This document shows positions 27,523 to 43,035 of a stretch of DNA of 64,000 nt, piece after piece. The DNA is taken from the NCBI GenBank assembly GCA_963763265.1, contig CAVXNN010000001.1, positions 184,949 to 248,948 on the forward strand, given 5' to 3'. Position numbers and translations under genes: made by a program. The stretch comes from an uncultured Actinomycetes bacterium (GTDB taxonomy: Bacteria; Actinomycetota; Thermoleophilia; Solirubrobacterales; 70-9). Below the pieces are notes generated by a model. It was not told the DNA's origin. It ran no database searches and saw only the letters and a program-made list of their open reading frames with translations. The stretch's first letter is position 1; each line of letters opens with the position of its first letter.

Positions 27523-27613
27523 GCCGGCGTGCGCCTCTCCTCCTCCCTGAACGAGACCGCCCGGGGGGTGCGCGTCGGCGGGCCGGACGGGGACCTCCCC
27601 TAGGGTCCGCACG

Positions 27614-28057
27614 ATGCGCAGGCGGCTCATCCCTGTCCTCCTCGCGGCGTTCGCGCTCGCCGTCGCCCTCGCCTCCTGCGGCGGGGGCTCGTCGACGACC
27701 GGGGGGAAGACGACGACGGGCAAGGCCCCTCCGAAGCCGGGGCGAACCCTGCTGCCCGCCGTGACCGGCGACCGCCACTTCGTCGAGCCGGTCGCCTACC
27801 GCCTCACCGCCGAAGGCGAGCTGATCGCCAAGGGGCTCGAGTGGCACGGCTGGGGAGAAGCGAAGGCGACCGCGGTCGGAAAGCTCGTCGAGCGGCCGGC
27901 CTCCGGCCTCGTCGACACCTTCTCCGGCAGCGTCACCGCCTCGGCGCCACGCACCTGCCACGGCGCTCGCTACTACACCGAGGTCTTCGCCCACCTGCCC
28001 AAGCAGGCCCCCTTCGTCCCGACCGAGCCGACGAAGCTGACGACGCCCTGCGGCTGA
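27614..28057 (+). CDS. hypothetical lipoprotein
   Basis: 147 aa with a signal peptide and lipobox (LAVALASCGGG). Confidence 0.6.
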   Translation: MRRRLIPVLLAAFALAVALASCGGGSSTTGGKTTTGKAPPKPGRTLLPAVTGDRHFVEPVAYRLTAEGELIAKGLEWHGWGEAKATAVGKLVERPASGLVDTFSGSVTASAPRTCHGARYYTEVFAHLPKQAPFVPTEPTKLTTPCG

Positions 28058-28152
28058 GCGGCGCGGCGCGAGCCTTCCGGGGTTCGGAACTCCGCTATGG
28101 CGCAAGTTTCGAACACCGCGGCGCTCCCCGCCGGGCGATAGGGTTGACACCG

Positions 28153-28578
28153 ATGTCGGACCCCAACGTGACAACCGCCGCGATCAAGCCCGGGGAGGAA
28201 TTCCAGAAACTCCGCCGCGAACTGGGCGTCGAGAGCTTCGGGATCAACGCGATCACGCTCCGCCCGGGCCAGCGCAACCGGGTCCACATCCACACCGGTC
28301 AGGAAGAGGTCTACCTGGTGATCGACGGCGAGCTCACCCTCGTCGTCGAGGGCGAGCCGCTGAAGCTGACCGCCGGACAGCTGGCCCGCGTCGCCCCCTC
28401 GGTCCGCCGCCAGATCACCAACACGAGCGCCGCGCCGACCACCGTCGTCGCCCTCGGCGGCGCCGGCGAGCACGAATCCCGCGACGCCCTCGCCTGGACG
28501 TCCTGGGACGAAGGCGGCAAGGGCCGCTCCCCCGCCGACGTGCCGCTCCCCGGGGACCTCCCGGCCTCGGGCGCCTGA
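28153..28578 (+). CDS. cupin domain protein
   Basis: The ATG at 28153 lies within track ORF 27841..28578. Cupin motif NRVHIHTGQEEVYLVIDGE. Confidence 0.7.
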   Translation: MSDPNVTTAAIKPGEEFQKLRRELGVESFGINAITLRPGQRNRVHIHTGQEEVYLVIDGELTLVVEGEPLKLTAGQLARVAPSVRRQITNTSAAPTTVVALGGAGEHESRDALAWTSWDEGGKGRSPADVPLPGDLPASGA

Positions 28579-28641
28579 GCCCGGGCCGCGAGGCCCACCG
28601 CAGAAGCCGACCGGCGAGGCGCACGGCGGCGCATCGCGCCG

Positions 28642-28679
28642 AAAGCCCGCCGCCGGGATCGAACCGGCAACCTCCTGAT
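28642..28679. repeat. distal att site: displaced 3' fragment of tRNA-Thr (direct repeat copy 1)
   Basis: The exact 38-nt string AAAGCCCGCCGCCGGGATCGAACCGGCAACCTCCTGAT is also present at 41030-41067. No matching 5' tRNA half follows here. Confidence 0.85.
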
Positions 28680-28919
28680 GAGTCGGAGGCTTGCGGCTGA
28701 TTTCGGTCGTCTGCGTTTTCCCTGCTAATCGGCACTTTCAGTCAGATCCGAAGCCGGTTCATTTGCGGCTTTCGCCGAACCGCCTGTTGCCTTTTTGTTG
28801 CCCCGAAGCCCTCACCGAAGCCTAGGGCGGGGCCTTGCCCTGCGACGAGCGTGCTCACGACGCCCGCACCTACTTTCCGATAGCCGTCGCATGGGGCCCC
28901 AGGTCACGCATTCCGACAG

Positions 28920-29177
28920 GTGGAGCCGACAGCGAGCATCGAGTACTCCAAGCAGCTGGTTTGCGGTCCTGACGATCCGGAGGCTGTCTCCTACCCCGAA
29001 GCCTCCATCAGCCGGTTCTCGAAGGACGCCAGCCTCCGGATGCTGGTGGCCGACGCTGCCGGGTGTCACGACCTGACCGCGGCGCGTCGGAAGCCAAGAG
29101 GGCCGCTGAACTGGGTCCGACGGACCTTGCTCTCCAGGTCTACCCAGGCTGGTGATTGGTCCATCATGGCGAGCTAG
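28920..29177 (+). CDS. hypothetical protein (weak call)
   Basis: 85 aa with a GTG start. By my hand count about 80 percent of codons end in G or C, in a region that is otherwise A/T-richer. There is no clear SD and no motif was recognised. Confidence 0.3.
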   Translation: MEPTASIEYSKQLVCGPDDPEAVSYPEASISRFSKDASLRMLVADAAGCHDLTAARRKPRGPLNWVRRTLLSRSTQAGDWSIMAS

Positions 29178-29417
29178 GACGGATCGGCGAAACTCGCAGG
29201 CTCAATAGCCATGCGGGTTCGCAGGGTCGGTGAGTTCACGGATACCTCGCTTTTCGGGGCTGAGCTACCCCAGCCACATCATCAGCGTCACGATTGTCAA
29301 CGCGTTGAGGAGCCGCAGAGCGCAATCCTGCGCGGCGGCGACGGCAGGATTTGATCTCCGTCCGGGCTTTGTCGGGCCTTTCAACGCCTTTCAGCGCTTT
29401 GTCCCCGTCTGGGTGGA

Positions 29418-29437
29418 CCGGCAGATCTGCCGGTTTT
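29418..29437 (+). terminator. candidate intrinsic terminator
   Basis: Perfect 16-nt palindrome CCGGCAGATCTGCCGG (29418-29433) followed by TTTT. Confidence 0.45.
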
Positions 29438-29718
29438 GCCGGGAGAGGCACTGGTACGGTGGCCTCGTTCGGCGTTCGTCTTCTCTGCGGAACGCTTCGC
29501 CAAGACCTCCGGCGGGACCCGGGGGTCTTGGCATGTCCGTAAACGCGTCCGGCGCCGCTGGTAACTGTTTCTGCGTTACGCAGAGACCACCCGCTGTCCC
29601 GAATCCCGTGCGGGTGAATGAAGATGGAACGAACGCCAGACATCTTGCCCCTTAACGTGCGGCCCGTATTCGGGTTGAAGCCGTGCGGGGGAGTACCGGC
29701 GTAGAAAGGAGGAGGCGT

Positions 29719-29898
29719 ATGGCTAAGACCATCTACCGCCCCGGGCAGCGCGTCCCGATCAGCGGCCAGTATGGCGTGGTCAACCGTCTCGGCACCTACC
29801 TCGGTACCGAACGGACGTGCGTTCGGGGGGAGCCATTCCCCCCGATCAACACGCCCGGCGGGCATGGCTACGTCCTGCGGGACGCAACCAAGCACTGA
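29719..29898 (+). CDS. YjzC-like small protein
   Basis: The ATG at 29719 follows AAAGGAGGAGG. The 59-aa MAKTIYRPGQRVPISGQYGVV...VRGEPFPP...GHGYVL matches the YjzC family pattern (PGQ.aP.sG.Y...G..FP). Confidence 0.6.
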   Translation: MAKTIYRPGQRVPISGQYGVVNRLGTYLGTERTCVRGEPFPPINTPGGHGYVLRDATKH

Positions 29899-29954
29899 TT
29901 CCTGACTAGGGAATTACTTCTGATTGACCGGGTGGTGCGGGACTACCCAGTTGG

Positions 29955-30215
29955 TCAGGACTCTAGACCCCCATCGACTTCGGCGAAGGTCACCTCGACC
30001 CAATTCTCGTCCAGATCTACAGCTCGAACATGCCGATCAGTTGCTTCCCCGAGCCGCAGCATCATCTCCGAGTTGCTCGCATGCACGGTCTCGACTACGA
30101 CGTCCTCGGTCACCCGGAGAAGCGCCCATAGTCGCCCAGCCTCGAAGCCTCGGACGAACTCGGGGTCGTCGGTGTCGAACGGGAGCAGACAGGTATGGCC
30201 GGTCGGGTCGTTCAC
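29955..30215 (-). CDS. hypothetical small protein
   Basis: Track ORF 29955..30371. The favoured start is GTG at 30215, 4 nt after GAAAGGAAC. The 86-aa product is acidic (VNDPTGHTCLLPFDTDDPEFVRGFEAGRLWALL...). Confidence 0.45.
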   Translation of the reverse strand: MNDPTGHTCLLPFDTDDPEFVRGFEAGRLWALLRVTEDVVVETVHASNSEMMLRLGEATDRHVRAVDLDENWVEVTFAEVDGGLES

Positions 30216-30627
30216 GGCGGTTCCTTTCGCATTGACTTCTCGACTCCTTCCCCATCGCTGGGGTTTTTCGGCCAGCGGGACAGTCCCGTAGGCAGTGCTC
30301 AAACCGGGACCACTGCGCCTTTCGGAGCGGATTTTCCGTCCGCTCGACCCGGTGGTTTTTCGCTCTAGCAAGCGACAAACCGACCTCCCCGCGAGGTTGG
30401 CGCTTTCCGGGGGTCAGGCCAGACGAGGTGTAGCTCGCGTGGCAGTTCCCAAGGTAGCGCCTTCCAGGGTGTCTCAGTTGTCGTAGCTGCTCGAATCGCC
30501 GGAGATCCCGCGGTTGAGCGCCGAGCGGCATTCGTCGATGAGCAGGCCGGGTCGATCCTGCCGGCCGAGCGCTGTCAGCCCCACTGCCTCTCCCTGCTCT
30601 TTAACGGCGCCCGCCCAGCTCGGAGGG

Positions 30628-31815
30628 TCACTCAATCGGACCCCCTTGCGGACCTGCCGTTGCCTGCGCGCTGTCGCCAAGCGCATCATCGAAGAACTCG
30701 GCGCCCCCGATCCCCTCGTCGAGCAGGTGGATGTAGGTCGAGAGGGTGAAGGACGGATCGGCGTGGCCCAGCCACTCCGAGACCTGCTTTACGTTGCGGC
30801 CGTTCTCGAAGAGGAGCGATGCGCAGGTGTGCCGGAAGGTATGGAAGCTGACCCAGGGCGTCTCGACGCCATCTCGGTCGACCACCAAGCCTGCCGCCTT
30901 GGCGGCGGGGGCAACCACGCGGTTGGCGACGTTCGAGCGACGCAGTCCCTCGCCGGTCGCCGTGGTGAAAACCGGGCTCTTCTCCTCGGTGAAGTGGTCG
31001 CGCCGATGAACGCGGAGCCGATCGGCGAGGCTCGGCGACAACGGCAGATTGCGGCGGCCGCTCCTGGACTTGAGGCGCTGTCGCTTGCCTTCGTAGACCT
31101 GTTCGCGGACCAGGAGCCGCGGCGTGCGCCCGAGGTCGAGGTGCTCCCAGTTGACGCCGCAAGCCTCGCTGATCCGTAGACCGGTCTGGGTCAGGAATAG
31201 GAAGAAGAGTTCCCAGTCCTCGCCTACAGCCGACAGGAAGAGGCGCAGCTCCTCCTTGGTCAGCGCCTTGGCGGGCTCGTCCGTCTCGTCGGCTCTCGGT
31301 GCCGCCGGGATACGGACACCCGCGATCGGACTCGATCGCAATATGCCGTCCTCGACCGCCGTCGCGAACATCGCCGAGGTCGCCGCGCGTACCAGCCGAA
31401 GGACCGACGTCGAGATTCCGGCCTCGCGCAGCTTGCCGTAGAGGCGGCGGACATCGACGGGTTCGACCTCTCCGAGGCGCCAGGTCCCCCACTCAGGGAT
31501 CACCCGCTCCGAGATCGCCCGGCGGTAGAGACTGCGAGAACGGTCCGATAGCCCCTGCGAGGTCCGGCCCGCGTAGGTCTCGATCCACTCGGAGAAGTAG
31601 GCGTCGACCGTCACCTTCGACGCCGGCGGTCCATCGCCCGCGCGACGCTTGCCCTGCGCCTCTCGCGCCTCGGCGAGCGTCCTGAAGGTTTCCTTGTGCT
31701 GCTTGCCGCGGTGACGCCAGACGACCACGTAGGCGCAATCGCATCTGCCGCCCCCGCACTCCTTCGTGTGACGCCGGAAGATCCCCGGCGTCGAAGTCTT
31801 GGTCAGCTTCGCCAT
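30628..31815 (-). CDS. tyrosine-type site-specific recombinase/integrase
   Basis: Track ORF 30628..31839. The ATG at 31815 follows GAGGAGGG. It has an N-terminal SAM-like arm domain and a C-terminal catalytic region with TGLRISEA, HTFRHTCASLL and WLGHADPSFTLSTYIHLL (R...HxxR...Y). Confidence 0.9.
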   Translation of the reverse strand: MAKLTKTSTPGIFRRHTKECGGGRCDCAYVVVWRHRGKQHKETFRTLAEAREAQGKRRAGDGPPASKVTVDAYFSEWIETYAGRTSQGLSDRSRSLYRRAISERVIPEWGTWRLGEVEPVDVRRLYGKLREAGISTSVLRLVRAATSAMFATAVEDGILRSSPIAGVRIPAAPRADETDEPAKALTKEELRLFLSAVGEDWELFFLFLTQTGLRISEACGVNWEHLDLGRTPRLLVREQVYEGKRQRLKSRSGRRNLPLSPSLADRLRVHRRDHFTEEKSPVFTTATGEGLRRSNVANRVVAPAAKAAGLVVDRDGVETPWVSFHTFRHTCASLLFENGRNVKQVSEWLGHADPSFTLSTYIHLLDEGIGGAEFFDDALGDSAQATAGPQGGPIE

Positions 31816-32064
31816 GTCCTCATCCCTCCTCTTGATCATCGTCTACTTGCTGGCGGTTTCGAACGGAGCCCGATTCCCCACCCGCCCGACCGCGGCTTTG
31901 ACAACCGCAGAACCGCGCCCCCCGCAGCGGCCGGAACCCGAGCCGCAGGCGAGGGCCGTAAGGAGCCCCGGCGCGGCCGGGGCTTGAAGGCCGCGAGGAC
32001 GGCGCCACCATCGCGGGCGCCAAAGCCGCCTGCCACCGGGCTTGCGCAACCCGCGAAGCGCCTG

Positions 32065-32340
32065 TCAGGTCCGGATCCCGCCACCCTGCACCAGCCAACG
32101 GTCAAGCTCCGAGCGCCGGGCGATCAGCGCCGATCCGTCGTGGTGGACCGGGATGCGGCGAGCCGAGACGAGCGCGTAGACCCGCGAGCGCGGCGCGTCG
32201 ATGTAGGCGGCGATCTTGTCGGCGCCCCGCAGCCAGCCATCCGCCTCCTTGCGCTCGGCCCGCTCGCCGATCAGCTCGGCCGCGCGCTCGGCGATCTGCT
32301 CGATCAGCTCCTCGCCGATCTCCACGCGAAGCCCGGCCAT
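32065..32340 (-). CDS. excisionase-type HTH (HTH_17/MerR-like) DNA-binding protein
   Basis: 91 aa. DKIAAYIDAPRSRVYALVSARRIPVHHDGSALIARRSELDRWL fits the excisionase HTH pattern. It lies between the relaxase and the integrase. Confidence 0.7.
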   Translation of the reverse strand: MAGLRVEIGEELIEQIAERAAELIGERAERKEADGWLRGADKIAAYIDAPRSRVYALVSARRIPVHHDGSALIARRSELDRWLVQGGGIRT

Positions 32341-32354
32341 TCAGGGCCACCCCC

Positions 32355-35300
32355 TCACAACTCGATCTCCATCGCCCGCTCCCGCTCGATCCTCTGCACC
32401 CGTTCGATCCCGAGTTCCTGCCGCGCCCGCCTGACCGCCTGCTGCGCCCTCTCGCGCTCCTGCCGCGCCGCATGGTCGGTCGGCTCGGGTCCGAATGCGT
32501 GGCCCCGGTCCCGGATCCCGTGCCGCTGTCGGAAGTTCTCGACGTCGCGCACCGCGCCATCCCAGGCAGCCCGCTTCAGCCCCGCGTCGGGCCTGGGACC
32601 CAGCTCGGCGGCGATGTAGTCGGGCGCCGACACCCGCGCGGCGGCGAGCGCCAGATCACGGCGGCGGTCGAGGACGGTGTCGATCGCCGCAACCTCGGCG
32701 CGCGCGTCGTGGCTCACCGCGGGCAGCTCGGAGCGCTCGACCTCCTGGCGCCCGAGCTCCCGCAGGTTGCTCCGTTCGCGCCTCTCGATCCCGTCGAGGG
32801 CGTCCCGATATTCGCGTCTCGCCCGACCCCAGCGAGGTTCCCTGCCGAGCGCCTGACGCTCGGCCTCGACCTGGTCGAGGGCGAATTCGGCGGCCGCCGT
32901 CCGATGGTCGAGCGACTCGCGCCTACGTTCGGCCGTGCCCTCTGCGTTGGCCTCCGATGCGATCTCGGAGCGCAGCCTCACCAGCTCGGGCGAGGAAAGC
33001 GCGTCCAGGCGCGTGCGGAGCGCCTGGTCGTGGGCTGAGATCTGGGCGCCGTCGCGTTCGGCCGCCGCGGCGATGTGGGAGAGGTCTCCCCGGACGCCGG
33101 GGACCGGCGCGAACTCGGCCCGCTCGAGGTCGATCTCGGGCGTCGCGTAGAACCACGTCTCCCGACGGCTGCGCGAGGCCGCGACGTAGAGCTCCTGGCG
33201 GTCCATCGAGGGGTCGGCCATCACGTAGGCGCGGTCGACGGTGGAACCCTGCGCCTGGTAGGTGGTCGCGGCGTAGGCGTGCTGGAGCGCCGGCGATCCG
33301 TCGTTGGGGTTCTGCCGCGCGAGATAGTCGCCATCGACCACCACCCGCCTTTCTGAGTCGACGCCGACGAGCCCGACGCCGCGGCCCTCGGCGTCGATCG
33401 CCTCGACCCGCCAACGCTCGCGGTTGTGGACCTCCGCCCCGTGGTCGTTGACCCGGGTGATCACCTGATCGCCGACCGCGAAGCGGGCGTCGCCGACCTT
33501 GAACTCGACATCACCGAGCCGGCCTTCGGCCTTCATCACCTCGCGCGCCAGGGCATTCAGCCGCGCGACCTCGGCGTTGCGCTTCGCGATCATCAGCGCG
33601 TCCTCGCCTTCTGAGTAGGAGCGCCACCAGTCGCGCACCATCTCCTCGCGGCGGACCTCGGGATCGGGCGAGACCACCACGCGACCCTGGGAGCGATAGG
33701 CCTCGATCGCCTCGGCGCCCCTGCCCTCGCGGATCCGCCTCGCTCCCTCGCGGTCGAGGTCATGTTCGTGACGGATCACCTCGTCGAGGAAGACCGGATC
33801 GGTGCGGGCGACGAGCGAGCCGAAGAGGCCACCCGCCTCGATCTCGCCGAGCTGGGCCGGGTCGCCGATCAGGACCAGCTTGGCCTCGGCCTCGCGGGCA
33901 TGGTCGATCAGCCGCGCCAGCGTCGCCGAGTCGAGCATCCCGGCCTCGTCGACGATCAGGACCGAGCCATGCCTGAGCGGGCGGCCACGGCCGTCGAGCC
34001 GGGCCAGGAGCCGGGCGACGCTCACCGCGTCGAGGCCCTCCGAGCCTAGGACGTTGGCGGCGCGCCAGGTCGGTGCCGCCACCCGCAGGTCGACCCTGGA
34101 GGCGGCCCATGCCTCGGCTGCCGCGACGGTGGCGAAGGTCTTGCCGGTCCCCGCCTCGCCGACCACGAGGACGAGCTGCTCGCCGCCGCGGGTCAGCCAC
34201 TCGACCATCGCGCGCTGATCTGCCTTGATCGTCGAGCGGCTCGCGAGGACGCGGGAGACGACGATCGGGTCGGCGACCGCGAAGGCGCCGCTCGCGGCCA
34301 TCTCCTCCGCCGCCGCCAGCGCCCGACGCTCCAGCTCCCAGATCCGCTCGGTGGTGAAGCGGGGACCACGTGGAGTCTCGGCGATCCGGATCACCGAGGC
34401 CGAGGCGAGGAACTCGTCGGCGAGCCGCTCGACCTCGGCGGCGGGGGCGCCGTGGGGCAGGTTGTCGGCGACGGCGCGGATCGCGTCGCGACGGTCGAAG
34501 TGGGAGACGTGCTCGGTGACCGAGCGCTCGACCCTCTGCGCGCTGAGGACCGAGCGGCCGGGCCGCTCGTGGCCGAGACGCCGGGTGATCCTCTCGCGGT
34601 CGAGCCCGACTTCCTCGGCTTTTGCCCGCCATCCCTCGCGGAGGCTCTCCTCGGTCAGGTCGCGGTCCTTGGCCCTGCGCGTCTCCAGGGCGGCGACCTG
34701 CATCGCGCGGGCGGAGGCGCCCTCGCCGACCGCGGCGAGGATCTCGGCGCGGCGGGTGGAGAACTTCCGCAGCTCCTCGGAGGAGAAGCCGCGGATGTCG
34801 GCGATGCCCTTGACGACCGGCTCCCACTCGACGCCGAGGCGGATCGTCAGCTCGTGGCGAAGGTGGGCCTCGTAGAGGTAGCTCGCGGTCTTCGCGTGCT
34901 CGTAGATCGCCGGGTGGTAGAGCCGCGACCAACGGCCGTCGGGACCGAGGGTCGCGTTGGCGACGAGGACGTGGGTGTGGAGCTGGGGATCCCCGGTGCG
35001 GGAGGAGCGATGGACATAGGCGGCGGCGAGGAAGCCGTTGCCCGGCACGAAGGTTCTCCCGCCCTTGCCCCGTCGCGCCCAGCAGGCGGAGCGCTCCATG
35101 TAGGAGAGGGCGGCCTCAACGGCGGCGCGGTGGGCCTCCATCACCTGGCCGGAGATCGGGTGGCCGGCGAGCGCCCAAGTCAGCGATACCGACTTGGGCG
35201 CCGAGAAGGTGAGGTCGAAGCCGGGGACCGGCTCGCGCCCCGGTGCCGACCTGAGGCCGAGCGGCTCGCCCGTGGCCGGGTTGCGGCCGGTCAGCATCGC

Positions 35301-35471
35301 GGTCAGCGCGTCGGGCTCGACCTGGCCGGCAAGTCCGAGTTCGGCAGACGCGGAGCCGATCCACCGGCCCTCGGCCTCGCCACGGCCCGAGTAGTAGTCC
35401 TCGGCGCCTTCGGCGACCTTCTCGGTGTAGTAGCGCTCCTGGCCGGCGCCGAGCTTGCCGATCGAGAGCAT
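32355..35471 (-). CDS. MobF/TrwC-type relaxase fused to TraA-like helicase
   Basis: Track ORF 32355..35705. The relaxase fold begins at ATG 35471 (MLSIGKLGAGQERYYTEKVAEGAEDYY). His motif HRSSRTGDPQLHTHVLV and helicase Walker A VVGEAGTGKT are present. The C-terminal ~250 aa are a charged coiled coil. Confidence 0.9.
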   Translation of the reverse strand: MLSIGKLGAGQERYYTEKVAEGAEDYYSGRGEAEGRWIGSASAELGLAGQVEPDALTAMLTGRNPATGEPLGLRSAPGREPVPGFDLTFSAPKSVSLTWALAGHPISGQVMEAHRAAVEAALSYMERSACWARRGKGGRTFVPGNGFLAAAYVHRSSRTGDPQLHTHVLVANATLGPDGRWSRLYHPAIYEHAKTASYLYEAHLRHELTIRLGVEWEPVVKGIADIRGFSSEELRKFSTRRAEILAAVGEGASARAMQVAALETRRAKDRDLTEESLREGWRAKAEEVGLDRERITRRLGHERPGRSVLSAQRVERSVTEHVSHFDRRDAIRAVADNLPHGAPAAEVERLADEFLASASVIRIAETPRGPRFTTERIWELERRALAAAEEMAASGAFAVADPIVVSRVLASRSTIKADQRAMVEWLTRGGEQLVLVVGEAGTGKTFATVAAAEAWAASRVDLRVAAPTWRAANVLGSEGLDAVSVARLLARLDGRGRPLRHGSVLIVDEAGMLDSATLARLIDHAREAEAKLVLIGDPAQLGEIEAGGLFGSLVARTDPVFLDEVIRHEHDLDREGARRIREGRGAEAIEAYRSQGRVVVSPDPEVRREEMVRDWWRSYSEGEDALMIAKRNAEVARLNALAREVMKAEGRLGDVEFKVGDARFAVGDQVITRVNDHGAEVHNRERWRVEAIDAEGRGVGLVGVDSERRVVVDGDYLARQNPNDGSPALQHAYAATTYQAQGSTVDRAYVMADPSMDRQELYVAASRSRRETWFYATPEIDLERAEFAPVPGVRGDLSHIAAAAERDGAQISAHDQALRTRLDALSSPELVRLRSEIASEANAEGTAERRRESLDHRTAAAEFALDQVEAERQALGREPRWGRARREYRDALDGIERRERSNLRELGRQEVERSELPAVSHDARAEVAAIDTVLDRRRDLALAAARVSAPDYIAAELGPRPDAGLKRAAWDGAVRDVENFRQRHGIRDRGHAFGPEPTDHAARQERERAQQAVRRARQELGIERVQRIERERAMEIEL

Positions 35472-35862
35472 CAGCGGGGACGTCCGCCGGGAACGCTTGA
35501 TCCGTCGTGGGTCGGGGTCATGGGTCCACTGGCCTGCGAGCGGGGCTGTTGCACCGGGTGCATGGCGCCATTGGCCCGCGGGCGGGCCGTTTGCACCGGG
35601 TCGGCGGGAATTGCCACGGGCGGCGTGTTCGGCGGGGCCGGCCGGTGCATCCGCGGGCTTTCGTGGATGCGGATCGGCAGCCGGTTCCGTCGAGGGGATC
35701 ACCATCCGGTGATACGGCGTGAGGGGTTCTGCTGTTGTCGTTATGTGGGTGGTGGCTGTTGGCTTGGCTTGGTAGCTGTGGTCTGCTGGCTGGGCTTGCT
35801 GGCTGGCTTCTCGTTGCCTGCGACTTGGCTTGCCTGTTCGGCTCTCGCCTCTGCCTGTCTGG

Positions 35863-36180
35863 CTACTGGCTGCCTGCCTTTCTGAATCGATGTCTGGATG
35901 GCCTTGAGTTGAAGGTGAAGACCCCTTCGGTCTCGGGTGCCGGGACCCAGGCGATCCCGTCGAGCAGCTCTTCCGGCCGGACCGCCATCGCCCCGGACAG
36001 TCGGATCAACGTGTCGATCCGACAGGTCCGGCCGGAGCGCTCAAGGAGGCCGACCTCGGTGCGGTGCAGCCCGGCCCGTCCCGCGAGCTGGTCCTGGGAA
36101 AGCCCTTCCCGGCGGCGCACCCGACGAAGGTTCTCGGCGAATCGATCGGCGACGTCCTCGGAGGGCTGCCCCCTACCCAT
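35863..36180 (-). CDS. XRE-family HTH regulator, paralogue C
   Basis: 105 aa with LRRVRRREGLSQDQLAGRAGLHRTEVGLLERSGR...LLDGIAW. Its start overlaps the stop of paralogue B by 8 nt. Confidence 0.75.
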   Translation of the reverse strand: MGRGQPSEDVADRFAENLRRVRRREGLSQDQLAGRAGLHRTEVGLLERSGRTCRIDTLIRLSGAMAVRPEELLDGIAWVPAPETEGVFTFNSRPSRHRFRKAGSQ

Positions 36181-36460
36181 CGCGTCCGTTCTCCGGGGCG
36201 GTCACGACGAGGCCGCCGCCGAGCCACACGATCGGCTCCCAGACGATCCCGTCGAGGAGGTCGTCGGGGGTGGTGCCGAGGGCTCCCGCCAGACGGACGA
36301 GGGTGAGGACCCGCGGCATCCGCCCGCCGCCCTCCAGCAGGCTCACCTGGGTGCGGTGGATGGCCGCCCGGAAGGCGAGCTCTTCCTGGGTCAGGCCCGC
36401 GTCCGCACGCAGCCGGCGGAGGTTGGCGGCGAAGCGCCGCGACGGCCCGGGGGATCTCAA
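36173..36460 (-). CDS. XRE-family HTH regulator, paralogue B
   Basis: 95 aa with LRRLRADAGLTQEELAFRAAIHRTQVSLLEGGGR...LLDGIVW. There is a 4-nt overlap with paralogue A. Confidence 0.75.
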   Translation of the reverse strand: MRSPGPSRRFAANLRRLRADAGLTQEELAFRAAIHRTQVSLLEGGGRMPRVLTLVRLAGALGTTPDDLLDGIVWEPIVWLGGGLVVTAPENGRDG

Positions 36461-36744
36461 CCATCCGCGTCCCGCCCGGCCTCGACGATCCGGCCCGGCC
36501 TCCTGTCGCCCACCTCCCAGGCGATCCCGTCGAGGAGGACGCAGGGCAAGGCGCCGAGGCCGCCGGCGATCTTGATCACGGTGTCGATCCGCGGCAGCCG
36601 TTCGCCGTGCTCGATCAGGCTGACCTGGGTGCGGTGGATCTCGGCGTTGTGGGCGAGCGCCTCCTGGCTCATGTCGAGGCCGCGACGGATGCGCCTGATC
36701 CGCGGGCCGAGGATGCCGGCGACCTGCCTTGCCGAGGCGTCCAT
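36457..36744 (-). CDS. XRE-family HTH regulator, paralogue A
   Basis: 95 aa with IRRIRRGLDMSQEALAHNAEIHRTQVSLIEHGER...LLDGIAW. Its start overlaps the upstream stop as TGATG. Confidence 0.75.
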   Translation of the reverse strand: MDASARQVAGILGPRIRRIRRGLDMSQEALAHNAEIHRTQVSLIEHGERLPRIDTVIKIAGGLGALPCVLLDGIAWEVGDRRPGRIVEAGRDADG

Positions 36745-37079
36745 CAGCCGAGGATGAAGCCGAGCCCGACCATCTGGCGGGCCGGGCGGCTCGGGATGAG
36801 CAACTCGCCCTGGCGGACCACGAGCCCCGAGGCCATGAGCCCGTGGACGGCGCCGGAGAAGCGGTCGGCCTCGCCGAAGTCCTCGGGGTCCCCGGCCCTC
36901 GCGGTCAGCGCCTCGCGCCAGGTGAGGATGCCGGGGAACTCGGCGAGGAGCAGGTCGAGCAGGCCGCGCTGGTCCGCCTCGTAGACCTCCTGGGGGTCGC
37001 GCTCATGGCGGGAAGGGGGCGCGCCGGCGCCTCCCGAACTACATTGCGGGTGCATGGGAGCGAATACCTCCTGTGCCAT
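36744..37079 (-). CDS. hypothetical protein, first gene of the four-gene regulatory operon
   Basis: 111 aa. An alternative ATG at 37055 follows AGGAGG. The C-terminal AVHGLMASGLVVRQGELLIPSRPA looks like a small winged-helix-type recognition segment, but this is tentative. Confidence 0.5.
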   Translation of the reverse strand: MAQEVFAPMHPQCSSGGAGAPPSRHERDPQEVYEADQRGLLDLLLAEFPGILTWREALTARAGDPEDFGEADRFSGAVHGLMASGLVVRQGELLIPSRPARQMVGLGFILG

Positions 37080-37144
37080 GCCCCCGGCTGTTTGCGCAGC
37101 GCGGGGGCGCTTTTTGTCTGTAGATGGAAGGTAGCAGAGCTACA

Positions 37145-37166
37145 AGCCGACTTTTAGAAGTCGGCT
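37145..37166. promoter_or_regulatory. candidate operator palindrome in the divergent intergenic region
   Basis: AGCCGACTT-ttag-AAGTCGGCT has perfect 9-bp arms and is flanked by GCTACA at 37139-37144 and 37164-37169. It lies about 40 nt upstream of the plus-strand XRE gene. Confidence 0.35.
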
Positions 37167-37206
37167 ACATGGACGATCCACCAACAAGTTGAGAACTTAA
37201 AGTCTG

Positions 37207-37434
37207 ATGCCACCCTCGAATACCACTCCGCCGAGCCTCGGCAAGGCGATTCGGCAGCTTCGCGAGCGGGGCGGCATGACCCAAGAAGGACTTGCGCATG
37301 CTGCCGGGTCGACCGCCGCCACGATCAGCGCCATCGAGCGGGGAGTCTCGAATCCAAGTTGGGGAACGGTCGAAGCGATCGCCGGAGCGCTCGGAGTGAC
37401 GATGGTCGAGGTTGCTCGACTTGCCTCGCGTTGA
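37207..37434 (+). CDS. XRE-family HTH regulator (divergent from the four-gene operon)
   Basis: 75 aa with LGKAIRQLRERGGMTQEGLAHAAGSTAATISAIERGVSNPSWGTVEAIAGALG. Confidence 0.75.
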   Translation: MPPSNTTPPSLGKAIRQLRERGGMTQEGLAHAAGSTAATISAIERGVSNPSWGTVEAIAGALGVTMVEVARLASR

Positions 37435-37734
37435 CAAAACCACCCAGCTCCTCGCTGAGGGCAGGACGGTCGCCGGAGATTCTCGACGTCCCATGGCGGT
37501 GTAGGCGCCGCCTGAAAACTGACCCCCCCTCGCCGGTCGAAAACTGGGGTCTTGCTGAAAGAACGGGGATGAGGCCCGGATAGAGACATCCGCCGCCCCC
37601 CGAGGCTCTGCGTAGTTCGAAGAACGCGGAGCAAGGAGAACAGCGGATGCACGATCAAGTTAGCCGCGGGCGGCGGCGAGGAGCCACTCCTCGCCGGGAA
37701 CCCGCAGCGCTTGTTGTAGCGAGCCACGGGATGA

Positions 37735-39024
37735 TCAGGTCCCTCGGCCGGCAAGGTCATGGGGCCAGTGCCAAGGCTCCGGCTCCTCCCTGATTTGCTC
37801 GAGAAAACGTCGCGACCTCCGCGGCACGACGCCACACTTCTTTAACCCGGCTTCGCCCAATCGAGCGAATACGGTTCGCGGGTAGTCCGTTCTCTTGCGT
37901 CGCAGACACTTCTCAAGGTGGTCCCGAAGGGCCCAATACCCCTCCTGGGCCCCTTCGGCCTCGACCGTATGTGGTTCGTAGCCAGCATGCACGACCAAGT
38001 TCCGGACCCGGTAGAGGCTCTCCCAGTACTTGTTGACCGGGGTGCCCTTCGCCTTCACATCCCAGCGTCCACCGAGCTTCTGCGGCATGGTGGTGATCAA
38101 CAGCGACTTGAACGACCGCTCTCGCCCGAGCTCAACCGAGATATCGGAAGAGCAGCGCCCCTCATCGACCAAGATCATGCGGTAGGTGTCGAAGAGCAGG
38201 CTCTCCGCCGCAATCTGGAAGCTGATGATTGCGTCGGAGGCATCCCCTTCTTGGCGGAGCGCACGTTGCGCCCTTAACCTCCAGAGTTTGGACCCCAGAT
38301 AGGGCTGGTTGGTCTCGACCGCATAGATCCCGTCCTGCAACTGCTTCTCGGTGATCGGACCATGTGAGGAGGGCAACTCATCCGGTTCGGCCTCGGGATG
38401 CATGAGCATCGTGTTCAGAAAGTCCCAGGACCCATCACGCCTGCGAACCCCTAGCACCACGACCGGCCGCAGATCGTGCGAGCTGACGGGCCGGATGCGG
38501 ACGTCTTGAGTTGCCGCTTGTACGGCCCGGAGAAAGATGTTGAAGGCCATGAGACAACGGTGGAACGCGAACGCCGGATCGTCCCACTGAAGCTCTCCCT
38601 TGGTGGGAGCGGATGGAGTCTCCAAGGTCACCCACTGGTGATGGGTAGCAAGCTCCCCCTCGCCATATCGATCCTCAGGGTTACCGATGAAGTCGTGACC
38701 ATAGAAGTGAGCAAGTGCAGCGTGGGTGCCCGGCGGCCACATCGGCAGTCCGTCTTCCTCGAACGTGAAGACCCTGATGTCGATGGTCGGGAGCGGCCCA
38801 AACAGATCTTCATCCGCCGGATCGGCGAACGAGTCGTGGATGGCGATGGTATGGCCGAGCTTGTCCGGGATGCCAAGAGGGAACGACAATGCGGCAGTAA
38901 AAGTGTAGATACCGGGCTCCCCCAACTCGTCGGCGAACTGATCGCTCGGATGCCACATAGCGGGAAGGATAGGCAGGGGACCGGGCAAGATCAGCATCCT
39001 TCTGGTCGGATCGCCAAACCGCAT
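37735..39024 (-). CDS. hypothetical protein with C-terminal HEPN-like domain (Rx4H)
   Basis: 429 aa. The C-terminal helical region is DASDAIISFQIAAESLLFDTY ... YWESLYRVRNLVVHAGYEP, with R341-x4-H346 encoded at 38004-37987. No motif was recognised in the N-terminal ~250 aa. Codon usage is A/T-richer than in the core genes. Confidence 0.6.
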   Translation of the reverse strand: MRFGDPTRRMLILPGPLPILPAMWHPSDQFADELGEPGIYTFTAALSFPLGIPDKLGHTIAIHDSFADPADEDLFGPLPTIDIRVFTFEEDGLPMWPPGTHAALAHFYGHDFIGNPEDRYGEGELATHHQWVTLETPSAPTKGELQWDDPAFAFHRCLMAFNIFLRAVQAATQDVRIRPVSSHDLRPVVVLGVRRRDGSWDFLNTMLMHPEAEPDELPSSHGPITEKQLQDGIYAVETNQPYLGSKLWRLRAQRALRQEGDASDAIISFQIAAESLLFDTYRMILVDEGRCSSDISVELGRERSFKSLLITTMPQKLGGRWDVKAKGTPVNKYWESLYRVRNLVVHAGYEPHTVEAEGAQEGYWALRDHLEKCLRRKRTDYPRTVFARLGEAGLKKCGVVPRRSRRFLEQIREEPEPWHWPHDLAGRGT

Positions 39025-39086
39025 AGGTTTTTGCCGGTCAAGTTCAATGTCTCGGGTTCGATGACGCCCGTAGGCGGGAGGAACGC

Positions 39087-39845
39087 GTGAACTGCATGAA
39101 CGTTCTGCTGGCCGGAGCCCGCGTGGGCGATGCGGGCATCTCAGTGACCGAAGTCGTGACGCTTTTGGTGGCCTTGGCGGCGCTCGTTGTCGCCTTGACC
39201 TCGCTTTGGATCACCGCCCTCCGCCCCGCTCGGTTCAACCTGACCTTCATGCGCGAGCACACGAAGATAGGCACCAGCGGCAAGAACGAAGTGCCCAATA
39301 TCTGCTCCATCCGGGCGTTCATGGCCCTGACGAATTCGGGTGCAAGGGCGGGACTCCTGGAGCGAGTGGGCTGGGGTAGCCACTTCAAGGTGGAGGCCGA
39401 GGCAGCACTGATGTTCGCGGTCGGTCCCGTGCCCCCGGAGAATGGGACCCATGAGGAGATGGTACGGCTCGACGGCAAGGTGCTGAACTGGCCGATCACG
39501 ATCCAGGCGGGAGACGTGCGGGCGCTGGAACTCGACTTCGAGATGGGCGGCGAGCTCCGGCGAGCCAGAGACGGGGCGCGGAAGGACTTGAAGCCGATCG
39601 CTGAGCTGGTGGCGAAGCTTGAGCGCGTCTCGATCGATGTCCACCTGATCTACCGATCGGGCAGTGCATCGCCTCGTTGGCTCGGCTACTTCTTCCGTCA
39701 GCGGACGGAGATCGGCAACTTCTATATCTACGGCGCAGAACTTAGGCGGACGGCGTCGGGGTATTGGTCGAGCATCGGTCGTGAGGACCTAGCCAAGATC
39801 GTCGACGATAGTTTCACCGGTCGTGACATCGACAAGATGTTTTAG
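39087..39845 (+). CDS. hypothetical single-pass membrane protein
   Basis: 252 aa. The GTG at 39087 lies 5 nt after GGGAGGAA; an alternative ATG is at 39096. One TM helix (VVTLLVALAALVVALTSLWITAL) and no recognised domain. It is divergent from the HEPN-like gene across 62 bp. Confidence 0.55.
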   Translation: MNCMNVLLAGARVGDAGISVTEVVTLLVALAALVVALTSLWITALRPARFNLTFMREHTKIGTSGKNEVPNICSIRAFMALTNSGARAGLLERVGWGSHFKVEAEAALMFAVGPVPPENGTHEEMVRLDGKVLNWPITIQAGDVRALELDFEMGGELRRARDGARKDLKPIAELVAKLERVSIDVHLIYRSGSASPRWLGYFFRQRTEIGNFYIYGAELRRTASGYWSSIGREDLAKIVDDSFTGRDIDKMF

Positions 39846-40014
39846 GCGAGGGACCACGAGACAGCGACGAAATGGGAGACCGACGGTCGATGGATGTCCT
39901 CACGCGCGTCTCTCGATCGGCCGGGTCTGAAGAATCCCACTGATCTGAGTCGTCCGTCTCGTCGCGAATGACTGCCATCGGCGGCTCAAATTACGCCTCA
40001 CAACGGTCGGCTCC

Positions 40015-40047
40015 GGGCCTCTCGACGTAGGCAACGTCGAGAGGCCC
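40015..40047. terminator. strong hairpin (possible terminator) in a noncoding gap
   Basis: GGGCCTCTCGACGT-aggca-ACGTCGAGAGGCCC has a perfect 14-bp stem. There is no U-tract on either strand. Confidence 0.35.
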
Positions 40048-40338
40048 TGGAGTCGGCAGTACGATCGCCACATGGTCCGCGCTAACAGATCCGCCCAGTC
40101 CGAGGTAGAGCGACGGCGAAAATCTGCCGAACGGACTTGAGGAATGTTCGCCCACCTGCACCGGGCAGAAATCTCTCCGATGAGTTGGTCGCTGACCGAC
40201 GCGACCGAAGCAGAGGCCGAGGCGCAGGAGGCGGCTGAGGAAGCCCAGCGCTTGCATGACAGGCGCTGAATCGCGTCATCCGATCCTCGATGTCTCCGCC
40301 CTGCACAGGTAGGACTGGACTAGAAATCGAGCCACGCA

Positions 40339-40626
40339 ATGCCTAACGCGCGACTCATCCGCGATCCACAGGGAAGGGACGTCTTGCTGGACGTCGAGCG
40401 CTGGGGGCACATCGTCGACGGGCATCCGGAGTTGGGCCACATGCAGGAGGAGGTCCTGCGCGCCGTGGAATCGCCGACCGAGGTCATGGCGGGGCGAATG
40501 TCCGATGAAGAGTGGTTCTACCTGGAGGGAGCCGGTCCGAGTCGCTGGCTCAAGGTCGTCGTGGTCTTCGACCGGAAAGGCAGCGGGCGTATCATCACTG
40601 CATTCGGACGACGAAGGAAGCCATGA
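40339..40626 (+). CDS. small toxin-like protein, partner of the DUF2283 gene
   Basis: 95 aa with ERWGHIVDGHPELGHMQEEVL...WLKVVVVFDRKGSGRIITAFGRRRKP. The stop overlaps the next start as ATGA. The family assignment (DUF4258-like) is not certain. Confidence 0.55.
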   Translation: MPNARLIRDPQGRDVLLDVERWGHIVDGHPELGHMQEEVLRAVESPTEVMAGRMSDEEWFYLEGAGPSRWLKVVVVFDRKGSGRIITAFGRRRKP

Positions 40627-40898
40627 GCGTGACGATCGCCGACATCACCTTTGATCGCGTCGAGTACGACTCCGATGCGGACGTCCTCTACCTCCACGTC
40701 GGCGATCCCTCGACCGCGGTCGAATTCGACGAGACGCCCGAGGGTCATGCACTCCGCTTCGACGCCACGGGCAATCTCGTCGGCATCACGCTGGTCCGCC
40801 CCAAGCATCTCCTCGATGAGAGCGGCGGACTGCGCATCACCTTGCCGGTTCCGAGCGACGTTTCCGCTCGCGAGTTGACCCCGGCTCTGAGCGCATAG
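40623..40898 (+). CDS. DUF2283 domain protein (putative antitoxin)
   Basis: The ATG at 40623 lies within track ORF 40512..40898. The 91-aa YDSDADVLYLHVGDP...FDATGNLVGITL fits the DUF2283 pattern. Confidence 0.65.
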   Translation: MSVTIADITFDRVEYDSDADVLYLHVGDPSTAVEFDETPEGHALRFDATGNLVGITLVRPKHLLDESGGLRITLPVPSDVSARELTPALSA

Positions 40899-41029
40899 CG
40901 CGTATTTGCGGCCGTCGACTCGGCGGCGCGCTTCCCCGTATCTCTGCGCCCTGTTGCCCTGGGCGTTGCCCCAGCAGATGAGAGCCCGCCACCTTTGCAG
41001 ATGATTTGGCTCTGTGACGCCACTTCGCA

Positions 41030-41067
41030 AAGCCCGCCGCCGGGATCGAACCGGCAACCTCCTGATT
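41030..41067. repeat. proximal att site within tRNA-Thr (direct repeat copy 2)
   Basis: Identical 38 nt to 28642-28679. It covers the tRNA from anticodon-loop position 38 to the 3' end, plus 2 nt. Confidence 0.85.
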
Positions 41068-41105
41068 ACAAGTCAGGTGCTCTCCCAGGTTGAGCTAGGC
41101 GGGCG
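41032..41105 (-). tRNA. tRNA-Thr (anticodon UGU)
   Basis: Hand-folded cloverleaf: GCCCGCC TA GCTC AACCTGGGA GAGC A CCTGA CTTGTAA TCAGG AGGTT GCCGG TTCGATC CCGGC GGCGGGC T. It is 74 nt long and no CCA is encoded. Confidence 0.9.
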
Positions 41106-41126
41106 CAGTGCCGACAATGGGGCTAG

Positions 41127-42122
41127 ATGGATGTCACGTTCCGATTCCTCGCCCCGGATGAGGGTGGCGTCCTGACCGCGGCGATAGAAGCAGCTTACGG
41201 CACGACCTACGACGTCCGGTGGGTCTACGACCCGGCGGAGGTCGCCGCCCGGCTGGCCGACGGGCGCTACGTGTCGTGCGTGGCGGAGACGGTGGGCGGG
41301 GAGCTGCTCTGCCACGAGGGGATGAGCCTGGCGGCGGCGGGCGACGCGGTCGCCCACTCCGGGCAGGCGGTGACGCTGGAGGCGGCGCGCGGGCAGCACC
41401 TCTTCACGCGGACCAAGCAGGCGCTGATGGACTGGGGCCAGAAGCGGGGGCTGGCCGGCATGTACAGCGAGGCGACCGCCGCCCATCCCTACAGCCAGAA
41501 GGCCAATCTCGACCTCGGCGCCCACGAGACCGGCTTCCTGCTGGGCTGGATCCCGGCCTCGGTCGAGAACGACGCGGCGGGCACGGGGCGGCGGCGCAAC
41601 TCGGCGGCGCTCTTCTACACGAAGCTGAACGACGGCCACGATCGGCGGGTCTTCGCCCCCGAGCGCCACCACGAGATCGTCGGCCAGACCCTCGCCCTAT
41701 GCGAGCTGCGCGGCACGTTGGCACACCCGCCGGCGGACTTCGAGCTGCCGGCGCGGACCGAGATGCACGTCGAGGTCGACGCCGACCACAACCTGGCGCT
41801 GCTCACGGTGACCGTGCCGGGCGCCGATCTCGACACGGTCGTCCACGCCGAGCGCCGGCGTCTCTTCCACCGCGCGAGGCTCGACGCGGTCTACGTCGAC
41901 CTGCCGCTCGACACGCCGGCGACCGCCCTGGTCGCCGACCACCTCGAGCGGCTCGGCGTCTCCTACGCGGGGATCTTCCCCAATCACAGGGCCGACGGCG
42001 ACGTCCTGCGCATGCAGTCGCTGCACCGGGTCCGAGTCAAGGCCGACGACGTTGCCGTCGCCTCGGACCACGGGCGCGAACTGCTCGAGTACGTGCTGGC
42101 GGACCTGGAGCGGCGCGACTAG
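41127..42122 (+). CDS. GNAT-family N-acetyltransferase-like protein
   Basis: 331 aa. The N-terminal half has a GNAT-like core (GGELLCHEGMSL...GQAVTLEAARGQHLFTRTKQALMDWGQKRGLAGMYSEA). Confidence 0.55.
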   Translation: MDVTFRFLAPDEGGVLTAAIEAAYGTTYDVRWVYDPAEVAARLADGRYVSCVAETVGGELLCHEGMSLAAAGDAVAHSGQAVTLEAARGQHLFTRTKQALMDWGQKRGLAGMYSEATAAHPYSQKANLDLGAHETGFLLGWIPASVENDAAGTGRRRNSAALFYTKLNDGHDRRVFAPERHHEIVGQTLALCELRGTLAHPPADFELPARTEMHVEVDADHNLALLTVTVPGADLDTVVHAERRRLFHRARLDAVYVDLPLDTPATALVADHLERLGVSYAGIFPNHRADGDVLRMQSLHRVRVKADDVAVASDHGRELLEYVLADLERRD

Positions 42123-42136
42123 CGCCGGCGAGGCGG

Positions 42137-42844: not shown

Positions 42845-42959
42845 AGATCCTTCTCCTTGCTGAAGGGTCGTGGCGCCACTTACCTCCCCCGAGGCGCCCT
42901 ACTTATCCGGTGGGCTCCTCCTCAGACTCAAGCTGAGGTTCACCCTTTATTGCGCGCCA

Positions 42960-42987
42960 GCTTTACGCATGCGCGGAGTTCTGTCAA
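42960..42987 (-). promoter_or_regulatory. candidate promoter for the sigH-like gene
   Basis: On the minus strand a perfect TTGACA (42987-42982) is followed by a 16-nt spacer and TAAAGC (42965-42960). The -10 element is weak. Confidence 0.25.
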
Positions 42988-43035
42988 CCCAATTTGCGAA
43001 TTTCTGCAACCGCCGTTGCATTTGCAGGAGTCCGC

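Follow-up and report, generated by a model that had tools for sequence, protein, structure and literature searches.

We analyzed a 64,000-nucleotide (nt) stretch of contig CAVXNN010000001.1 from an uncultured bacterium of the Solirubrobacterales (hereafter the window), which carries a genomic island at a tRNA-Thr(UGU) gene. The island is a precise 12,387-bp insertion with the crossover somewhere inside a 38-bp core, because in a relative that shares ~94% nucleotide identity the same flanking genes enclose a lone 38-mer, with nothing inserted. It is probably an integrative mobilizable element (IME) of the kind that encodes its own relaxase (iMOB) and is transferred with the aid of a helper. This assessment refers to the mechanism as a whole. 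The integration part by itself, leaving the transfer mechanism aside, is close to certain.

Insertion into the tRNA-Thr gene

The 38-mer AAAGCCCGCCGCCGGGATCGAACCGGCAACCTCCTGAT is present in two exact copies in the whole window, in direct orientation, at 28642-28679 and 41029-41066. A first-pass annotation of the sequence had described an integrated element bounded by this repeat but had placed the right copy one base too high, at 41030-41067. None of 100 shuffled sequences contained such a match, and no third att copy was detected in the window at up to three mismatches. A single intact tRNA-Thr(TGT) was called by ARAGORN and Rfam (65.7 bits) on the minus strand, its 3' end facing into the element. 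As the first-pass annotation had it, the right copy is the 3' part of this tRNA. It starts just 3' of the anticodon, at tRNA nucleotide 39, and extends through the discriminator base (nucleotide 74) to 2 nt beyond. Likewise in agreement, the sequences outside the two copies differ from each other on both sides, and ARAGORN found no tRNA 5' half after the left copy. The GC content is ~0.72 outside the element vs 0.61 to 0.65 within it at 29-31 kb and 37-41 kb. The integration sites are:

28642..28679, no strand: distal att copy, the displaced 3' fragment of tRNA-Thr, with the original chromosomal flank to its left (exact repeat; left flank matches the empty site of the relative described below)
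28761..28806, plus strand: candidate arm-type integrase-binding repeats of one attP arm, ATTTGCGGC, then CCTGTTGCC-N6-GTTGCCCC (same motifs on the other arm)
40904..40975, plus strand: candidate arm-type repeats of the other attP arm, ATTTGCGGC, then CCTGTTGCC-N6-GTTGCCCC (same orientation as at 28761-28806)
41029..41066, no strand: tRNA-proximal att copy, the 3' part of the functional tRNA (exact 38-bp repeat)
41031..41104, minus strand: intact tRNA-Thr(UGU), the integration target (ARAGORN; Rfam 65.7 bits; same gene in the same context in three relatives)

The motifs common to both arms of the reconstructed attP may be arm-type integrase sites, with thin statistical support. The predicted junction of the excised circle (attP) reads GTGACGCCACTTCGC, the 38-mer, GAGTCGGAGGCTTGC, and that of the repaired chromosome (attB) reads GGCGCATCGCGCCG, the 38-mer, TACAAGTCAGGTG.

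The empty site was found through the protein encoded to the right of the island (331 aa), which has a 95%-identical homologue on a 1.41-Mb contig of assembly ERZ25039500 (locus L083). This locus shows ~94% nucleotide identity to the window over 19150-28590 and 41026-51963. Its gene order is glyoxalase, SHOCT protein, 148-aa protein, cupin, tRNA-Thr(TGT), 331-aa protein, extracytoplasmic function (ECF) sigma factor, SpoU, and CysS. It contains a single copy of the 38-mer, and the 12-kb segment is absent. The sequence left of its core agrees with what precedes the left copy in the window (98% over 56 nt, core included), and to the right its core runs on into the tRNA 5' half, just as the right copy does in the window. 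In L083, the outer flanks of both copies thus stand joined. Two further loci with ~85% identity, L084 and L085, are also empty, with tRNA-Thr directly beside the 331-aa gene. An empty tRNA-Thr site between the cupin gene and the right-flank gene, which the first-pass annotation had expected in relatives, therefore exists, and together with the exact repeats it bears out the earlier view of an integrated element.

The flanking genes encode the 331-aa protein (41127-42122) and the cupin (27841-28578). The former had been called GNAT; it has no Pfam match, and names given to its homologues by the Joint Genome Institute (JGI) are inconsistent, being either RsbW (kinase) or GNAT. The cupin open reading frame (ORF) has 245 aa by the longest-ORF rule vs 141 aa for the called homologue in L083; judged from this comparison, the true start of the window gene is probably downstream of the longest-ORF start.

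Mobilization genes and a probable origin of transfer

A contig of 11.3 kb from another assembly (ENA ERZ25039483, contig_65855; locus L001) is 99.92% identical to window positions 28795-40136. We count this copy as a sign of recency. Both ends of the contig lie inside the element, one 115 bp from the left att copy and the other just before a toxin-antitoxin-like gene pair; they may reflect strain variation at the element ends or a fork in the assembly graph. A string of minus-strand genes runs from 37079 to 30628 and comprises, in the order of transcription, a protein of 103-111 aa, three XRE regulators, a 390-bp noncoding gap, the relaxase, a 91-aa helix-turn-helix (HTH) protein, and the integrase. 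These genes and the sites between them are:

30628..31839, minus strand: tyrosine integrase (Phage_integrase, E 4e-21; the gene called on L001 starts at 31815, 395 aa)
32065..32340, minus strand: 91-aa HTH protein, a candidate excisionase (recombination directionality factor) encoded in the interval from the relaxase gene to the integrase gene
32355..35471, minus strand: MOBF relaxase fused to a RecD-like superfamily 1B (SF1B) helicase, 1038 aa (ORF 32355-35705; TrwC, E 1.3e-84; AAA_30, E 1.6e-47)
35513..35596, no strand: imperfect tandem repeat of two 42-bp units (76% identity) that separates the oriT-like site from the start of the relaxase gene, each unit containing CCCGGTGCAA
35698..35740, plus strand: probable core of the origin of transfer (oriT), with hairpin ATCACC-atcc-GGTGAT at 35698-35713, ACG, invariant GCGTGAGG at 35717-35724, then GGTTCTGCTGTTG
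35725..35890, plus strand: G/T-rich, nearly A-free tract, A/C-rich on the relaxase strand (AT-skew dip; motif-proximal part conserved in the family)
35863-36180, 36173-36460, and 36457-36744, minus strand: three consecutive overlapping XRE-family HTH genes (HTH_3, E 3.9e-8, 1.4e-11, and 4.8e-11)
36744..37079, minus strand: small protein of 103-111 aa that heads the XRE-relaxase gene string (no family match)

The relaxase scored 256 bits against the NCBIfam MobF model NF041492 (cut-off 100). Its residues 20-291 align residue for residue with TrwC (1OMH, E 1.6e-33), and the catalytic residues are kept: YY14/15, YY26/27, D86, and the histidine triad H154/H165/H167 (H-x10-H-x-H). The helicase part has a Walker A motif, GEAGTGKT, at 438 and DEAGM at 508, and it matches RecD2 (3E1S, E 1.6e-9). 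By these sequence features, the protein is a bona fide MOBF member, as the first-pass annotation had proposed. The integrase named there was recovered as well: the catalytic set R222, H333, R336, H359, and Y369 is complete, and the closest solved structure is Tn1549 Int (6EN0, E 1e-9). Its stop codon lies 1,949 bp from the distal repeat, matching the earlier estimate of about 2 kb, and a similar placement recurs in the closest distinct relative (L002, see below).

Two entries on the smaller genes need correction. The HTH_17-type excisionase stands as a similarity (HTH_17, E 4e-4; TIGR01764 'excise', E 1.7e-4, both scores under the curated cut-offs), which makes it a weak call; a counterpart is present at the same position in L002 (87% identity). 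Five XRE regulators had been counted, of which only three were detectable (35863-36744). Homologues of the 103-111-aa protein lie directly upstream of XRE genes in L002, L003, and L005, and were found at seven loci overall. In line with the first-pass annotation, no domain of a type IV coupling protein (T4CP), type IV secretion system (T4SS), VirB4, FtsK/TraB (FtsK_SpoIIIE), Rep, or Prim-Pol was detected in any ORF of the element, and the relaxase is its only protein with a Walker A motif.

The region upstream of the relaxase contains a motif shared across related loci. Within 500 nt upstream of family relaxases, the top enriched 8-mer was CCTCACGC, which was present at 32 of 47 loci and always on the relaxase-sense strand. 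On this strand, an A/C-rich tract precedes the 8-mer, with a conserved motif-proximal part, AACAGCCAACAGCAACCAC; 2-4 nt past the 8-mer comes (T)ATCA, followed by the hairpin. Correspondingly, on the plus strand of the window, a G/T-rich tract follows GGTTCTGCTGTTG and runs to about 35890. The hairpin stems vary between loci and still pair (ACC/GGT, ACT/AGT, AATT/AATT, AGTTCGCC/GGCGAACT, ACGT/ACGT, and ACCC/GGGT). An anchored stem of at least 5 bp was present at 26 of the 32 loci vs 1.6 in shuffles, and none of 1,000 shuffles reached the observed value. The 32 loci were picked for having the 8-mer, so its invariance is partly by construction; the hairpin statistic is not.

In MOBF nic sites, a single-stranded recognition sequence of ~9 nt has nic at its end and an inverted repeat on its 5' side (PMC4176350). 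The site in the window has this arrangement. In our alignment, the family consensus GTGAGGGTG/GTTGCTGTTGG and the F sequence GTGGGGTGT/GGTGCTTTTGG (PMC3074121) are identical at 14 of 20 positions. By this analogy, the conserved motif and covarying hairpin are a probable oriT, with nic predicted near 35727/35728 on the plus strand. If the plus strand is nicked there, the G/T-rich tract and the XRE genes would be transferred first and the relaxase gene last, and, as in F, the strand that moves would be the one antisense to the relaxase.

The G/T-rich tract (~165 nt) lies between the last XRE stop codon and the oriT-like motif. It consists of CAGCC, AAGCC, and AACAGC-like units, and the 20-30 nt nearest the motif are conserved across the family. 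It could serve in binding of the relaxase or accessory proteins, as a single-strand initiation site or leading-region promoter, or as an unstructured mRNA leader. The 42-bp tandem repeats at 35513-35596 are preceded by a degenerate third copy (CCCGTGGCAA) and possibly form a binding site for a regulator or the relaxase.

Related elements, candidate helpers, and cargo

More than 100 relaxase homologues with 62-89% identity were found, all of ~1040 aa and nearly all from soil metagenomes; the named ones belong to metagenome-assembled genomes (MAGs) of Solirubrobacterales or unclassified Actinobacteria. A Streptomyces host, which the GC content of 72% had suggested, was rejected because the named relatives are Solirubrobacterales. 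A family scan with one genome per GTDB species yielded 80 loci, mostly from Solirubrobacterales MAGs. Family elements are present on complete MAG chromosomes such as OY969913.1, OY970268.1, OY969703.1, OY970321.1, OY969794.1, and OY969122.1. At 28 related loci (27 from the scan plus L002), the relaxase gene is enclosed by a tRNA gene on one side and a second copy of that gene's 3' half on the other, and 24 of these 28 fall among the 36 close-family loci with full flanks. The elements measure 7.8-17.9 kb, with a median of 12.4 kb, essentially the size of the window element. Their att repeats have 18-61 nt (~42-61 nt in most, 18-32 nt in four), and the targets are tRNAs for Met (two species), Arg, Leu, Glu, Cys, Gly, and Ser. 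The closest distinct relative, L002, has an 89%-identical relaxase and the same gene order, but its integrase differs (49% identity). Exact 43-bp copies of the tRNA-Met 3' half, 11,285 bp apart, delimit this element, and a cargo gene lies in the 2.2 kb that separate its integrase gene from the distal copy. Many loci of the family have the integrase gene beside the tRNA; in others, it is found at the far end.

When the ORFs of 29 delimited elements were clustered, the recurring proteins were the relaxase (29/29), the tyrosine integrase (28/29), and XRE proteins (at least 21), the rest being variable. The only conserved parts of the family are thus the relaxase, the integrase, the XRE regulators, and the noncoding motif with hairpin upstream of the relaxase. 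Outside the family, the best relaxase match among 2.9 million viral contigs was 36% identical, and the best matches among 72,556 plasmids were ~30%-identical MobF proteins of Corynebacterium, Mycobacterium, and Clavibacter.

Extra att copies follow several related elements (L022 at 15560-18990, L004 at 430-2170, L041, L043, L034, L080, and L020). In L022, two tandem units of 1.7 kb, 99.6% identical and bounded by the tRNA-Glu 3' half, stand after the main element and contain no integrase gene. Such units look like nonautonomous att-bounded passengers or products of accretion. One possibility was that the 2-kb stretch separating the integrase gene of the window element from its distal att copy is an accreted unit in its own right, of the L022 or L004 kind; we rejected this, since there is no third att copy and no similarity to those units.

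The contig of the empty locus L085 (JGI 3300062832, Ga0599155_0000002; empty tRNA-Thr region at 275-297 kb) also carries a sibling element, L092, at 95-118 kb. It encodes a 79%-identical relaxase, an HTH_17 protein, and an integrase and adjoins a gene for a 1889-aa RHS-repeat protein. Its HTH_17 gene, a weak match, is at a position equivalent to that of the window's 91-aa HTH gene. Neither a tRNA nor a direct repeat was found within 10 kb of L092. Relaxases with 59-61% identity and an oriT-like motif were also present in an Ilumatobacteraceae MAG (L021, 777-kb contig) and a Chloroflexota MAG (L028, 6.4-kb contig), which points either to transfer over a large taxonomic distance or to mis-binning.

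For the question of a helper, three VirD4/TraG-type T4CPs encoded beside distant relaxase relatives (PF02534, E 1e-19 to 1e-24) and one VirB4-like AAA_10 ATPase were used as phmmer queries against all ORFs of all loci and of the window. T4CP homologues were obtained only at loci with a 31-43%-identical relaxase (L050, L059, L062, L063, L066, L068, L074, L078, and L079), mostly from Acidimicrobiia. None was detected in loci with a relaxase of at least 52% identity or in the 64-kb window, and no T4CP or mating pair formation (MPF) gene was found in the element or within 10 kb of any of ~50 close family members.

One of the T4CP-bearing loci, L050, is from a Baekduia MAG and thus from the Solirubrobacterales. 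It contains a ParB-like gene, the relaxase gene, and genes for a 700-aa VirD4-type T4CP and the VirB4-like AAA_10 ATPase (15905-22377). At ~98 nt upstream of its relaxase gene is AGCAGCACCCTCACGG-ttct-GGTGGcccCCACC, which has the same motif-plus-hairpin design (9900-9960). A related motif and hairpin are present at 9900-9960 of L051, another Baekduia MAG locus; the relaxases of L050 and L051 are 39-43% identical to that of the window. Because of L050, T4SS-type modules with related relaxases and putative oriTs exist in the Solirubrobacterales, and from its gene content L050 is a candidate for the kind of conjugative element able to act as a helper. The compact elements at tRNA genes look like derivatives in which just the DNA-processing half has been retained, which would fit a hitcher-helper relationship.

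The remaining genes of the window element are cargo:

29719-29898, plus strand, and 29955-30215, minus strand: two small low-GC ORFs located right of the distal att copy and left of the integrase gene (called as genes on L001, which is 99.9% identical)
37735..38997, minus strand: 420-aa protein, candidate ApeA-like HEPN nuclease (JGI names; invariant motif)
39087..39845, plus strand: 252-aa protein with a hydrophobic, membrane-like N-terminal segment (from the translation)
40339..40898, plus strand: candidate toxin-antitoxin pair with ATGA overlap, in which 40339-40626 encodes a BECR-fold-like protein of 95 aa and the gene for its DUF2283 partner has its ATG at 40623 and its end at 40898

PADLOC, PHROGs, and NCBIfam returned nothing for the cargo. 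The two small ORFs had no match in Pfam, PHROG, or PADLOC, and the 252-aa protein had none in Pfam, NCBIfam, PADLOC, or PHROGs. Among 109 homologues of the 420-aa protein, several are labeled 'Apea-like HEPN' by JGI, and R332-N333-x3-H337 in the helical C-terminal domain is invariant. Pfam and PADLOC gave no match for this protein, and Pfam was likewise empty for 24 of its homologues. An AlphaFold2 model (pLDDT 82) had no significant neighbor in the PDB (best E 0.045; a Csm6 HEPN chain had E 1.4). The R-N-x3-H motif and the JGI names make the protein a candidate HEPN nuclease. The 420-aa and 252-aa genes are divergently transcribed, and the pair could be a two-gene defense or abortive-infection module. 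In the pair adjoining the tRNA-proximal end, the 95-aa protein resembles PBECR2 (E 0.0019, under the cut-off) and its partner matches DUF2283 (E 2.6e-8); this pair is probably a toxin-antitoxin addiction module. ORFs 37165-37494 and 39991-40257 were rejected as genes, since their composition looks noncoding and they were not called on L001.

Proposed mechanism, alternatives, and known systems

The mechanism we propose is as follows. XRE proteins would hold the long minus-strand string (small protein, three XRE genes, relaxase, HTH protein, and integrase) repressed. Upon induction, the integrase, probably with the 91-aa HTH protein, would recombine the two 38-bp cores to give a circle and a restored tRNA gene. 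The relaxase would bind the hairpin at 35698-35713, nick the plus strand a few nucleotides 3' of GCGTGAGG, and attach covalently, while its helicase domain would unwind the DNA. The nucleoprotein would then be passed to the coupling protein and T4SS of a conjugative element resident in the same cell; entry would begin with the G/T-rich tract and the XRE genes and finish with the relaxase gene, the same order as in F and R388. Once inside the recipient, the relaxase would reclose the strand, its complement would be synthesized, and the integrase would insert the circle at tRNA-Thr. Retention of the element would be favored by the toxin-antitoxin-like pair and by the HEPN-like cargo.

The first-pass annotation had also considered the element mobilizable and helper dependent. 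The intact relaxase, the oriT-like site, and the lack of T4CP and MPF genes nearby are consistent with this; neither an excised form nor a helper was observed, and the dependence on a helper is what we infer. Several points weigh against the proposed mechanism. Two exact-match scans of JGI metagenome contigs for the attB, attP, attL, and attR junctions revealed neither an excised circle nor a repaired site of the same strain. Since the JGI collection apparently does not contain this strain, we do not count the empty scans against excision itself. Conservation and analogy are the whole basis on which oriT and nic are predicted, and in part of the family the other side of the hairpin is somewhat conserved, too. 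The scores of the candidate excisionase are under the cut-offs, as mentioned above. No helper element was seen within the 64-kb window of this genome, and MOBF relaxases are usually accompanied by their own T4CP. No canonical IME with a MobF or MobH relaxase was known at the time of a 2017 review (PMC5704250).

Transfer could alternatively proceed without a helper if the relaxase-helicase docked on a translocase of the host (an FtsK/SpoIIIE-like pump, an ESX-type system, or another secretion system), making the island a minimal self-sufficient conjugative element. We consider this unlikely. The family is widespread and its genes are intact, yet the ~50 close members have no T4CP or MPF gene within 10 kb, and the relaxase brings its own helicase; on the other hand, MOBF relaxases provide no precedent, no feature of the element suggests a docking factor, and T4CP and VirB4-like genes adjoin related relaxases in the same taxonomic order, making ordinary helpers plausible. 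That the whole clade (~50 species-level genomes, never with a coupling protein) might transfer helper-free via a host-encoded DNA translocase is an unlikely extension of this idea. If true, docking on a host translocase would be a third route of actinobacterial conjugation beside T4SS and TraB. For integrative and conjugative elements (ICEs), the relaxases are known to act as rolling-circle replication initiators for the excised circle. The relaxase-helicase of the island could mainly have such a role and maintain the excised circle, with cell-to-cell spread being rare or using other routes. The absence of a Rep gene in the element would agree with this, as would the kinship of HUH relaxases and rolling-circle initiators, which have a common nick-site logic (PMC4814116). 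We doubt this explanation, too, because at least nine tRNA targets in dozens of species with swapped integrases would be left unexplained and the motif resembles a conjugative MOBF nic site; moreover, replication and mobilization are not mutually exclusive.

It is very unlikely that the island is what remains, now immobile, of a larger conjugative element after loss of the transfer genes. Distant relaxase relatives in T4CP-bearing clusters do indicate that the family probably descends from conjugative elements, but the repeats are exact, the integrase and relaxase are full length with intact catalytic residues, the same compact layout occurs at 28 loci with different tRNAs, and the site is empty in the relative with 94% identity. 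A prophage remnant or phage satellite, in which the integrase and XRE proteins would operate a lysogeny-type switch, is the least credible of the alternatives. Prophages and satellites also typically combine an integrase with an excisionase-like HTH protein and XRE repressors at a tRNA gene, but the element ORFs contain no capsid, terminase, or primase domain and nothing that resembles a phage structural or packaging protein, the ten element proteins left unassigned by Pfam have no significant PHROG match, and even the best relaxase relative in the viral contigs mentioned above is just 36% identical.

A helper-dependent IME agrees in layout with canonical IMEs (iMOB; e.g., NBU1, Tn4555, and IMESag-rpsI). 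These, too, are small, use a site-specific integrase that often targets a tRNA 3' end, have their own relaxase and oriT (putative here), lack a coupling protein and mating pore, and carry addiction-type cargo (PMC5704250, PMC11389934). They differ in the relaxase: the 2017 review lists only MobP, MobQ, MobV, and MobC, whereas the window element has a MOBF relaxase with a fused helicase, and the review knew a single IME from Actinobacteria (PMC5704250). A further difference is the host, which belongs to an uncultured class of Actinomycetota. With F (TraI) and R388 (TrwC), the element shares the relaxase fold, the catalytic residues, the fused SF1B helicase, the hairpin 5' of a conserved single-stranded nic region (predicted here), and the position of oriT (putative here) beside a relaxase gene that is transcribed away from it and would be transferred last. 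In contrast to these plasmids, it is integrated and has no T4CP or T4SS; its relaxase is at most ~30% identical to theirs, and its hairpin is separated from the conserved block by a spacer that exceeds that of F by ~5 nt. The closest relaxases in sequenced plasmids, those of the Corynebacterium, Mycobacterium, and Clavibacter MobF plasmids, have the same domain order but are plasmid borne and 29-30% identical.

Actinomycete ICEs (AICEs; e.g., pSAM2 and SLP1) resemble the element in their actinobacterial hosts, their size of 9-24 kb, the tyrosine integrase and Xis, and insertion in a tRNA 3' half with an identity segment of roughly 40-60 bp. According to the 2017 review, AICEs are transferred as double-stranded DNA by an FtsK-like TraB and have a Rep of their own for replication (PMC5704250); the element has neither and encodes a relaxase instead. 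It differs from T4SS-type ICEs by the lack of a VirB4-family ATPase, a T4CP, and further MPF genes. Later surveys describe relaxase-bearing integrative hitchers as common and their oriTs as mostly unknown, and a recent one could identify known oriTs in almost none of them (bioRxiv 10.64898/2026.01.13.699239). Our literature search found no paper combining Thermoleophilia, conjugative, and relaxase.

The element is thus of a known kind, a canonical IME in layout, and belongs to a large family that seems to be undescribed. IMEs are common yet poorly characterized, and for the specialist this locus is useful more than surprising. It offers a cleanly delimited element with a matching empty site, a specific and testable oriT/nic prediction, and a family of dozens of members in abundant uncultured Solirubrobacterales of soil. 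The family shows swapping of integrase modules, by which the same mobilization core was retargeted to at least nine tRNA genes. The locus also suggests that relaxase-dependent single-strand conjugation operates in a class without reported conjugation biology.

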